A stretch of DNA of 64,000 nucleotides from Eledone cirrhosa (GCA_964016885.1 OZ024754.1:34658001-34722000); one strand, 5' to 3'; counted from the stretch's first letter, positions 28,601-31,600 are shown. The notes: generated by a model not told the origin, from the letters alone. Program-made: numbers and translations.

Positions 28601-31600
28601 TACAAAATATTGAGAAACTAATACAGGGTTTGACGCGGCAGGCTTCCCTTCCCAGCTCGAGCCGGTGGGGCTGGATCTAGGGGACGGCAAAAGGCCTGAT
28701 GGCATAACCATCTTCTCGTTCCGCGGTGGCAAACCTCTCGTCTGGGATGCCACTTGCACCGACACTTTCTACAGTCTGTGACAGACCCAGATTCTGCTGC
28801 GCGTCGGGTTGAGGAGGCCAAACTCCTCAAATACCAGTCGCTCTCCGACAGGTTTGCGGTCGTACCCCTGGCAGTGGAGACTTCTGGTATCCTTGGCCCC
28901 AGGGCTACCTCCTTACTCACCACCATAGGCGCTGAGCTGGCCAGCCGCAGGTGTGAGCCCTGCGAGTTGGAGTGGCTTTTCCAGCGCCTCTCGCTTGACA
29001 TCCTCCGGGGAAACACCTCCATTCTGTCCACCGGGGCTGTGGGTGGGCCCCATCGCGTATCAGGCTGATAAATAAAGTACCAATCCGACATTGGCGTCGA
29101 TTCTCCACTCACCTTTTCTCTCTATCCACACACACACACACACACACACACACACACACACACACCTTTCCTCCTTGATATACTGCTTCATTACTACATA
29201 TAACGTATTCATCTAAAGGGAGAAAGACACTGCGTGTGAAAGACAGATTGATATCACCATAGTTACTAACTACACAGCAAGTGACATTTTTCGGCTGATA
29301 CTCCCAGTTTGTTGCTGGCTCTTATGTTTGTTAATCGAGACACTGTTCTTTACCCGAATCATTTTATGTTTGGAAAATTTGTTCGTGAACCAAGGTTCCA
29401 CTGAATATTAGTTTAAAGGACTTTCTGAATTATACTCCAATCATTTTAGATGAACTAAACAACCATTCCTTTCCTATTTGTTATTGCCAATACTGATTTG
29501 GATGCATTGCTACCAATGTTGATGATTGTTGTTGTTACTAACGTTGCCTTGTTCTCTTCCTTTCTGTGTAACAGACTATAATGAAGGACAAGTGGATGAA
29601 TATAGGTTTCGAGGATGATGAACTTAAGCCTTATGTAGAACCACCACCTGACATAAATGATTCACTACGAATAGGTAATTGTATATATATAAACCAAAAA
29701 AAAAAACAAAAAACAAAAAAAAAACAGACGATCCTATGAACTTGTTCAGATTTTGTTTCCATACCTTGGGAGTGGAAGCAACAGGCTGAACAGGCATTAT
29801 TATTATTATTATCATCATCACTACCACCACCACCACCACTACCACCACAACTACCACCATTATATTTACAATTACTTTTATTTGTTGCCCTGCTGATCTA
29901 GTGGCTGTGCTAAGGGACATTCTATGAAGGTCTGCTATTGCTGCAGTGTAATGTCTCTTCTCTCAGGACACCAGGATTCTTACAGAGAGGCACCTGTCAA
30001 AAATCCTTTGCATGCTGTTTTTTTTTTTTTTTTTTTTTTTTTTTTATATCATGCAAATTTTTTTTTGTTTCAGAGCTTTGTCGTATTTGTTGTTGTCATC
30101 TTCTAAGTGGGCTTTGTGGTTGTCTCTTCCACCCGTTTGTTTGCTTGATTATCTTATTTTTTATGTGCTGAAAATCAGTTTGTCTTTTGGTCTACAGACC
30201 ATTATGCGAGACCGCTGGATCAATGTTGGGTATGAAGATAAAGAATTAAAGCCTTACAAAGAGCCATGTAGAGACAAGCTTGATCCTAAGCGCATAGGTA
30301 AACCAACGTTATGCAACGTTTATCAAATATTTGTAACAGGGAAGATCTTGTTGATTTCTCCAGCATGTTTTGCTGCCTGTCAATATAGTTCAGTTGTGTA
30401 TACAAAGAGGGTGTACAGTTCAAGGGGAGAAACTGTTTTCTCTATAACTGGGGCTATTCCTAATTCTTTGTTAGTTTCATGTAGTTGCAATAAACTTTTA
30501 ACAATTAGTCATATATTGTAATTTTAACCCTTTAGCATTTACATTACTCTATATATACTATATTTTCACAGTAAAGGCTTTGCCTCACATAATTATCTCA
30601 CATAATATCAAATCTATGAGATTTTGATATTATTTATTTTGAGAACAATACCTTAACATAAGTACAAGTGGCCGGTTACAACCGGTTTGAATAGTAAAAG
30701 GTGAGAGAATTCTGGTCAAATACGGCCAGTTTAAATGCTAAAGGGTTAAATATAAAGTCAGCTATATTTTGAAAAACCAAATTTATATTGGAAAATTGAC
30801 AAAACTTCCATAAATTATTGCAATAAAAATGGCTGACAAGATTTCTGCAATAGAGTCGGTGTTATAATTTTGTCAATGCTGTTTTACATTTCCTTGGCAT
30901 GTCTGCATAGTTAAGAAGCTTATTTCACAATCATGCATTTCTGCATTTGGTCCTATTGTGCAACCTCTTTGGAAAATGTCTTCTACTATAACTTCAAGTC
31001 AACCTAAATCTTATTGGAGGAAATTGGGTAGATGGAAACTGTGCTGATCTCTGTCTTATAGACTATTATTGAGTGGTGGTAGAATCAATCCACCAGCCTG
31101 TTTAATACCACCACCATTTGGCCCTTAAATAACTTTTGTGGAGTTTACTTTATTGCATTCAGGTTTCCAGTGTGAGGATAGCCCTTGTTTTCTTCCACTT
31201 GTCATAGAAGCCCTGCATTATGATTGAAAATCAACAAGACTTGAAAATTCTATTGATTTTGAGTAGATGTCATTGAAAGAAAACTCTGATTAGTCATAGT
31301 TTTACCAAATTATGTTGCTGCGATATTCACAATTAAGATTTCTCTGTAGAATAATTGAAACAGAGGTTTGACTCAAATATTTTTCCTTTTGGAGTATTAG
31401 AGTTTTTAAATTATTAGATATATTCTTTTAATTATATTTCTAAATTGGGTTTTGCTCTTAATATGAATCTTTATGTAAACTTTTGATTATTATTTACTTT
31501 TGAAATTTAAATATAACTGTAGAGAATTTGATATACACAATTTGTTGTACCTAGGTGTGCATGTACATAATTTAATTGTGCTGTGCTGTTTGTATATATA

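Follow-up and report, generated by a model that had tools for sequence, protein, structure and literature searches.

What does a kinase gene gain by encoding twice, in slightly different words, the short segment that joins its catalytic domain to the domain behind it? The question is raised by a 64 000-nucleotide stretch of the Eledone cirrhosa genome (GCA_964016885.1, OZ024754.1:34658001-34722000), here called the window, whose (+) strand carries most of a MARK/Par-1 gene. In it two homologous exons, A and B, lie in tandem and encode alternative versions of the end of the kinase domain, an acidic ExxE motif, the linker and the beginning of the UBA domain. The switch between them is real, ancient and selected; its biochemical effect would lie in what the acidic motif and the linker touch. 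The parts of the gene on which this turns are the following, with positions counted from the first letter of the window.

22121-22240, + strand: constant exon ahead of the pair, end of the kinase C-lobe, phase 0 to 0
29575-29674, + strand: exon A, with the end of the kinase domain, an intact ExxE (EDDE), the linker and the beginning of UBA helix 1, phase 0 to 1
29675-30197, + strand: intron between A and B, 523 nt, with an A-rich tract from 29691 and a run of 28 T at 30018-30045
30198-30297, + strand: exon B, the homologous alternative to A, AG acceptor before, GT donor after, phase 0 to 1
30234-30245, + strand: ExxE motif of exon B (EDKE), its Lys codon (30240-30242) being exon position 15 and MARK2-style residue 311
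30258-30272, + strand: exon B linker positions 21-25, with Lys21 (30258-30260), invariant Glu22, Cys24 (30267-30269) and Arg25 (30270-30272)
57689-57801, + strand: constant UBA exon, entered in phase 1

That the gene is a MARK is clear from its product. The exon chain that includes exon B is open over 445 codons and identical at 439 of the 445 to the Octopus vulgaris MARK protein P0006, whose best PDB matches are MARK1-4, ahead of SIK3, whose activation-loop threonine (MARK2 T208) is present as Thr201, and whose kinase and UBA domains align to MARK1 without gaps in the linker region. The UBA, ungapped to that of MARK1, follows a linker of about 20 residues, the Pfam UBA match at P0006 318-353 falling below the curated cut-off (18.5 versus 22.4 bits). 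A KA1 domain is found in this orthologue (Pfam KA1, E 9.9e-18); the window ends before it.

Exons A and B are each 100 nt long, with equal phases (0 to 1) and canonical AG/GT ends, and are identical at 20 of 33 residues and 61 of 100 nt. There are two copies exactly: an ungapped scan of 22300-57700 scores them at 185 and 182 and the next best site at 15, and neither that scan nor tblastn or blastn gave a third copy there. Both match MARK1-4 chains in the PDB, with best E values of 4.9e-09 for B and 5.3e-11 for A. The Pfam kinase domain contributes its last eight residues to the encoded segment, ending at exon position 8, and ExxE, the linker and the first part of the UBA match follow. An initial annotation of the window had placed exon B at these coordinates and described it as reversing the charge of the segment and adding a cysteine, and its particulars are exact: exon A has 8 D/E and 4 K/R (net -4), exon B 7 D/E and 9 K/R (net +2) with one Cys, EDDE has become EDKE, and the linker is altered as described. 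Its further statement that the core residues are retained in B is borne out by the comparison, the catalytic core and the residues that anchor the extension being alike in the two forms. In the acidic cluster C-terminal to the kinase core, EDDE in A, B is without one of the four acids, though both outer glutamates are kept; isoform A thus follows the ExxE pattern with x = E or D (MARK4 having EGEE), from which isoform B departs with Lys at the third place. The D-R-W and D-P-K-R of B are closer to MARK2 than are their counterparts in A.

Two single codons in the pair deserve a remark of their own. Ser30 of the window's exon A (TCA, 29662-29664) is Pro in the other 10 A rows of the alignment described below and is one base from CCA, a species change or a sequence error. 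Cephalopods edit RNA heavily, and the Lys codon AAA of exon B (30240-30242) is one A-to-I edit from Glu, which would restore the acidic motif; no evidence for editing of that codon was found, the transcript-like proteins P0004 and P0005 retaining Lys.

Is the choice between the copies truly exclusive? Adjacent, homologous, equal in length and phase and 523 nt apart, with neither co-inclusion nor double skipping productive, they have the sequence hallmarks of tandem-duplicated mutually exclusive exons. With one copy the frame is open in 8 of 8 combinations with the downstream cassettes considered below; all 8 other combinations run into a stop, at nt 36 of B when both copies are present and no more than 28 nt into the next exon when neither is. 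Since inclusion of both or neither gives a premature stop, and since mollusc isoform pairs differ essentially only in this exon, there is strong support for A and B being a mutually exclusive pair of which each transcript uses one copy. Use of a single copy is shown by proteins of other molluscs, the Eledone arrangement being read from the genomic sequence. Eight protein pairs were compared, and in four of them the exon holds all, or nearly all, of the differences. Outside it there are no differences in P0013/P0004 (748 aa, from transcript-like contigs of 2627 and 2766 nt), P0037/P0238 (on a Magallana gigas backbone, 801 aa) and P0028/P0203 (Babylonia, 837 aa), and two in P0016/P0204 (Pomacea); the remaining four pairs are cross-species, cross-paralogue or differ in other exons (8 to 298 differences). 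Gene models of Pinctada and Mytilus coruscus have A followed by B, the order in the window, and those models that hold both copies (P0188-P0191) need unrelated spacers of 18 and 13 residues to do so and are probably annotation artefacts. Nonsense-mediated decay probably removes the products that lose the frame, and it is likely that tissue or stage governs which copy is used. One O. bimaculoides model (P0002) reads past the donor of B into the intron, an annotation artefact.

How exclusion is enforced is a separate matter. Steric interference between A and B is unlikely, given the 523-nt intron and a distance of 473 nt from the donor of A to the branch-point candidate nearest B; for exon A the branch-point candidate is TACTAAC at 29536. 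The only long A-rich tract of the window (29691-29727) stands just after the donor of A, two of its four long T tracts (30018-30045 and 32028-32054) flank exon B, and the A/T duplexes that could form around B have predicted energies of -21.0 and -15.5 kcal/mol. Competing RNA pairing could in this manner loop out B, a weak lead that involves low-complexity tracts only and was noticed after the fact. A search of the window against Rfam gave no matches.

The evidence that the difference matters comes from its conservation. The B set was retrieved with a profile built from B, and the best 120 of 838 matches were examined. Redundant isoforms, Crassostrea and Candidula were left out of the count, which comprised 11 A rows, 22 B rows from 18 genera and 10 single-exon outgroup rows. 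At the third residue of ExxE, position 15, 11/11 A rows have Asp and 10/10 outgroups Asp or Glu; the B rows have Arg (10), Lys (8) or Ser (4), and 0/22 are acidic there. Position 21 is Val or Ile in every A row and Lys or Arg in 20 of 22 B rows, with Lys in 3 of the 10 outgroups; position 25, Pro or Ala throughout A, is Lys or Arg in 22/22 B rows and in 4/10 outgroups. Could selection by the profile have created the pattern? When segments among those best 120 matches, redundant rows included, were classed without regard to position 15, all 80 that were B-like proved non-acidic there and 44 of the 45 others acidic, and a separate unindexed profile search agrees, with B-like exons having K, R, S, N or Q at position 15 among its top matches. 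What is conserved in these rows, then, is a broken ExxE plus a pair of basic linker residues and not a change of sign; position 15 alone is unique to B. That the A/B differences are selected is supported by the same alignment.

On the reversal of charge the initial annotation was right in direction and too general in degree. B is 3 to 6 units more positive than A in 7/7 comparisons (one pairing an unnamed A with a cuttlefish B), A being at -4 or -5 and the outgroups between -1 and -4, but B itself reaches +2 in cephalopods only and is 0 to +1 in bivalves and -1 to 0 in gastropods. Part of the gap is owed to A, in which position 31 is V or L in 11/11 rows against K or R in 6 of the 10 single-exon outgroup rows (in B it is Lys in 12 of 22). 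The annotation had also proposed that conservation of the basic residues special to B be checked: those at positions 15, 21 and 25 hold across three mollusc classes, but Lys27 is confined to two B rows, both cephalopod. The same two rows are the only ones with the Cys at position 24, where the other B rows have Ser (11) or Pro (9), and the cysteine does not survive as a conserved feature of the exon.

How old is the pair? Among the matches listed, B-type exons occur in the cephalopods Octopus and Acanthosepion, in the bivalves Tegillarca, Pinctada, Mytilus, Pecten, Ylistrum, Magallana, Crassostrea, Ostrea, Saccostrea and Sinanodonta, and in the gastropods Biomphalaria, Physella, Lymnaea, Bradybaena, Candidula, Babylonia, Pomacea and Nucella; among the best 120 no named non-mollusc has the B pattern. 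Only A-like exons came from the nemertean Lineus and from two thrips, these being 90% clusters, of which that of Lineus, with 25 members, could hide B isoforms. Exon A is the type common to a nemertean and is closest to insect MARKs. No named chiton, annelid or brachiopod protein is among the matches listed. The octopus-cuttlefish split is some 270 million years old, and exon B is identical in Octopus and cuttlefish. In a tree of 43 rows and 33 columns the exons group by type and not by species: A and B need two changes each, where shuffling gave means of 9.9 and 14.6 and not one of 500 shuffles came as low. The approximately unbiased (AU) test rejects A+B clades restricted to cephalopods (p 0.034) or to gastropods (p 0.008). 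The simplest reading of these sequences would be a single tandem duplication before cephalopods, gastropods and bivalves diverged, a divergence that is Cambrian. Babylonia (P0197/P0203), Bradybaena (P0209/P0252) and Nucella (P0208/P0247) each have two divergent MARK proteins, apparently paralogues, both with a B-type exon.

What might such a switch do? The MARK ExxE motif is likened to the common docking (CD) site of MAP kinases and 'may represent' a cofactor attachment site (PMC2604893), so that of the initial annotation's 'established' docking motif the resemblance is on record and the docking role is a conjecture. Tails that pack on kinase helices E and I are described (PMC10503413), and the variable residues of homologous mutually exclusive exons are typically exposed and near interaction or functional sites (PMC7954323). 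There is strong support for a tandem duplication of the exon that runs from the final kinase residues through the CD-like ExxE and the linker into the first UBA turn; copy A has kept the acidic, proline-rich form and copy B has fixed three changes: an acid of ExxE giving way to K, R or S, and a K or R on either side of the invariant equivalent of Glu318. On our reading fold and catalytic core would be untouched, and the switch would rewrite the surface that the C-terminal extension exposes at the back of the kinase. Through its acidic patch A would bind a regulator or substrate with a basic motif, and B would bind it weakly or prefer other partners; a secondary effect on contacts between linker and alphaC is likely, and the Cys and Lys27 of cephalopods would be later additions and not the core of the switch. 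That B is an isoform with its acidic patch neutralised, and that this changes which basic-motif partners bind, we hold to be an evenly balanced proposition. AlphaFold models of the full-length proteins P0006 (B; 37 sequences) and P0013 (A with the cassette C2; 41 sequences) have mean pLDDT of 40.7 and 40.9, with the linker below 50.

Several observations weigh against this account, some against its history and some against its biochemistry. An A+B clade restricted to bivalves is not rejected (AU p 0.157), and B forms one clade in 24% of bootstrap trees, with AU p 0.363, so that its unity is neither shown nor rejected; the AU results come from 33 columns and a simpler model that is more prone to false rejection. 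The window's B is identical at 21-27 of 33 residues to non-cephalopod B rows and at 20-23 of 33 to A rows, ranges that overlap, and the B set, as noted, came from a profile built on B. The net charge of B is not conserved in sign, four of the 22 B rows have Ser instead of a basic residue at position 15, and K at 21 and K/R at 25 appear in single-exon outgroups too (3/10 and 4/10). Human MARK4 has EGEE (PMC2604893), because of which the acidic patch must be allowed some tolerance of change. Finally, the literature searched named no partner that binds the ExxE of MARK: the accessible sections of PMC5019223, PMC6737064 and PMC10106153 give none, and the 'CD domain' of the last, as far as those sections go, concerns ERK, not MARK.

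The most serious competitor keeps everything within the molecule. The grip of the linker on the end of alphaC and the positioning of the UBA would set basal activity or activation by LKB1/TAO, and the B basics at residues 317 and 321 could pair with an Asp at the alphaC end, MARK residue 108. The linker clamps alphaC in MPK38/MELK, and in MARK1 the linker residue Glu318 contacts Asn108 at the alphaC end (PMC3940201); only MARK2-style numbering fits both of these residue identities, and by it Glu318 is exon position 22, flanked by K21 and R25 of B. Wherever a mollusc row has the motif, its residue 108 is Asp, and the cassettes C1 and C2, like an unrelated 28-residue insert of Littorina at the same UBA helix 1 junction, point to coupling between kinase and UBA. 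Yet Asp108 is also found in Lineus, thrips, three of four nematodes and Antedon, where no B exon was seen, and the only change unique to B is at position 15, inside ExxE. Co-evolution of Asp108 with exon B was itself considered and rejected, the Asp being widespread in invertebrates. We think this explanation improbable but worth pursuing, and it and the docking reading are not exclusive: both can hold.

Might bulk charge suffice, with B associating better with anionic surfaces such as membranes or tubulin tails and changing localisation instead of specific docking? The upward shift of 3 to 6 units in all seven A/B comparisons would fit, and, KA1-type domains being lipid-binding membrane recruiters (PMC10503413), some added avidity is plausible. 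However, gastropod B exons are still neutral or acidic and the changes are at fixed positions, not in bulk charge, and we consider such targeting quite unlikely. It is very unlikely, too, that the isoforms are biochemically equivalent, interchangeable copies kept by splicing constraints or for regulation at the transcript level, their differences being frozen accidents. Every B residue except that at position 15 does occur in some single-exon MARK, but in three classes the two copies keep opposite states at positions 6, 15, 21 and 25, B is retained in both paralogues of Babylonia, Bradybaena and Nucella, and redundant copies would be expected to decay or drift. There is also the cysteine, which, flanked by basics, has been suggested as a possible redox site and might make of B a redox or lipidation switch. 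It is unchanged in 8/8 cephalopod-type B sequences (the window and P0001-P0007), and AMPK-related kinases are redox-regulated through cysteines (PMC11964447). But exon B does not vary at all in those cephalopods, and conservation of its Cys is accordingly nothing special; Magallana A, Lineus and Antedon have stray cysteines elsewhere in the linker; and the known redox Cys, at T-loop +2 (PMC11964447), is in a constant exon common to both isoforms. The cysteine of B is linker residue 320 in MARK2-style numbering, away from T-loop +2, and is not conserved across orthologues, which sets it apart from the redox switch of the family. Because it is found only in cephalopods, 20 of the 22 B rows having Ser (11) or Pro (9) in its place, a general redox role is unlikely and the residue at best a cephalopod add-on; that it is the functional novelty of the exon strikes us as a most unlikely outcome.

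To return to the docking reading, it may be enlarged by what follows B. Two cassettes, C1 and C2, sit in the 27-kb intron between B and the UBA exon.

45903-45923, + strand: cassette microexon C1, 21 nt, 7 residues, phase 1 to 1, AG/GT with a weak donor
47475-47525, + strand: cassette exon C2, 51 nt, 17 residues, phase 1 to 1

Both preserve the frame and insert after exon position 33, inside the region that Pfam aligns to the first UBA helix, and in the three cephalopod proteins with inserts that were scanned Pfam no longer gives, at E 0.01, the UBA match that P0006 has. All 7 residues of C1 match an insert in the O. bimaculoides gene model P0010; this one model is its basis, its donor is weak, and it is outside the top 10 of 35 candidates in a splice-site scan. 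C2, fourth of the 35, matches at 16 of 17 residues an insert in P0004, among cuttlefish-like proteins, and is present in P0003-P0005, P0010 and P0013 and absent in P0006/P0007. Four of the eight possible junction forms occur in the retrieved proteins: B, B+C2, A+C2 and A+C1+C2. A mollusc splice switch turning the CD-like patch on (A) or off (B), and with the cephalopod microexons giving up to eight junctions that select partners and activation states cell by cell, is a picture we advance tentatively and with more doubt than belief. Unrelated inserts at the linker-UBA junction, 28 residues in Littorina (P0024/P0025) and 4 residues in thrips (P0034-P0036), suggest that the junction is repeatedly used for splice variation. 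TGCATG is present at 45974, 51 nt after C1, and at 46982, about 490 nt before C2. The top of the 35 candidates, at 33082-33102 (+), would be another in-frame 21-nt microexon between B and the UBA exon, with a strong acceptor and a GTAAGT donor; none of the retrieved proteins carries it.

Where does the pair stand among known systems? It shares with MARK1-4/Par-1 (PDB 2HAK, 1Y8G, 6C9D; PMC2604893) the order of kinase, ExxE, linker, UBA and spacer, A keeping ExxE with x = D or E. Unlike them, the mollusc gene encodes the segment twice and chooses by splicing, and the basic residue or Ser inside ExxE of B has no counterpart in the 10 outgroup rows or among the human motifs given in the accessible part of PMC2604893. 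A close parallel is FYN, where FynB and FynT (PMC9741552) arise from ancient, homologous mutually exclusive exons over a regulatory linker next to the kinase and differ in partner binding and tissue. FYN, however, is a chordate tyrosine kinase, its exons cover the SH2-kinase linker and N-lobe, and its function has been tested; the mollusc switch is in a CAMK-group kinase, concerns a C-terminal linker and is known here from sequence alone. The tandem duplicated exons of PRKCB are terminal exons. PRKCB, MAPK8 and MAPK14 (PMC8373072) are Ser/Thr kinases with homologous exon substitution, as in mollusc MARK, but belong to other families, vary in other regions, and have neither a UBA domain nor downstream microexons. 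MPK38/MELK offers an AMPK-related kinase whose kinase-UBA linker contacts the alphaC end and influences activation, but through one fixed linker, stated to differ in sequence and conformation from that of MARK and with no splice switch described in the sections accessible (PMC3940201).

No description of the A/B switch was found in the full-text literature searched, which covers few subscription papers. Fly par-1 is counted, in a broad sense of the term, as a gene with mutually exclusive exons, the accessible text leaving unstated which exons are meant, and this could bear on novelty (PMC3303723). It is absent from the Drosophila melanogaster tandem-duplicated-exon list in the accessible part of the PMC9741552 supplement (part 2); par-1 and MARK1-3 have 0 matches in the 6 supplement files of PMC7954323 that were searched, and MARK1-4 have 0 matches in one PMC9741552 file, which may not contain the full human list. 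Both isoforms already sit uncommented in automatic annotations of several molluscs. What would be new is the regulation of MARK by an exon pair in molluscs; the mechanism, a duplicated-exon switch in a kinase linker, is already a known kind.

The ExxE of MARK kinases has counted as a putative docking site from the earliest structures onward. Natural isoforms that are identical except for a linker segment provide a ready contrast for finding its partner or for showing that the linker acts on alphaC and the UBA, and the answer applies to human MARK1-4 as well, since polarity and tau-type microtubule proteins are under MARK/Par-1 control. The pair also adds a lophotrochozoan case to the ancient duplicated-exon switches, which in the literature consulted are centred on human, fly and worm. 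If the patch is indeed switched on and off, there would be natural evidence that the CD-like patch of MARK is a real docking site, and one mollusc gene would do by splicing what vertebrates may do with four paralogues.

The remaining exons of the gene in the window are these.

4584-4632, 5605-5670, 11478-11548, 12295-12351, 13337-13472 and 16592-16692, + strand: six upstream kinase-domain exons, all AG/GT, with earlier exons outside the window
58650-58818, 60110-60285 and 61289-61467, + strand: three spacer exons, with later exons and KA1 past the window end

Fragments of a LINE-type element are at 119-1523 (-), of which 1176-1523 matches Pfam RVT_1 (E 1.9e-13). A GC-rich, frameshifted stretch at 28620-29070 (+), about 500 nt upstream of exon A, has no Pfam match in its longest frame and reads like what we take to be the endonuclease end of a non-LTR retrotransposon. 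An imperfect inverted repeat, seen by eye at 24400-24520, is possibly a small mobile element.

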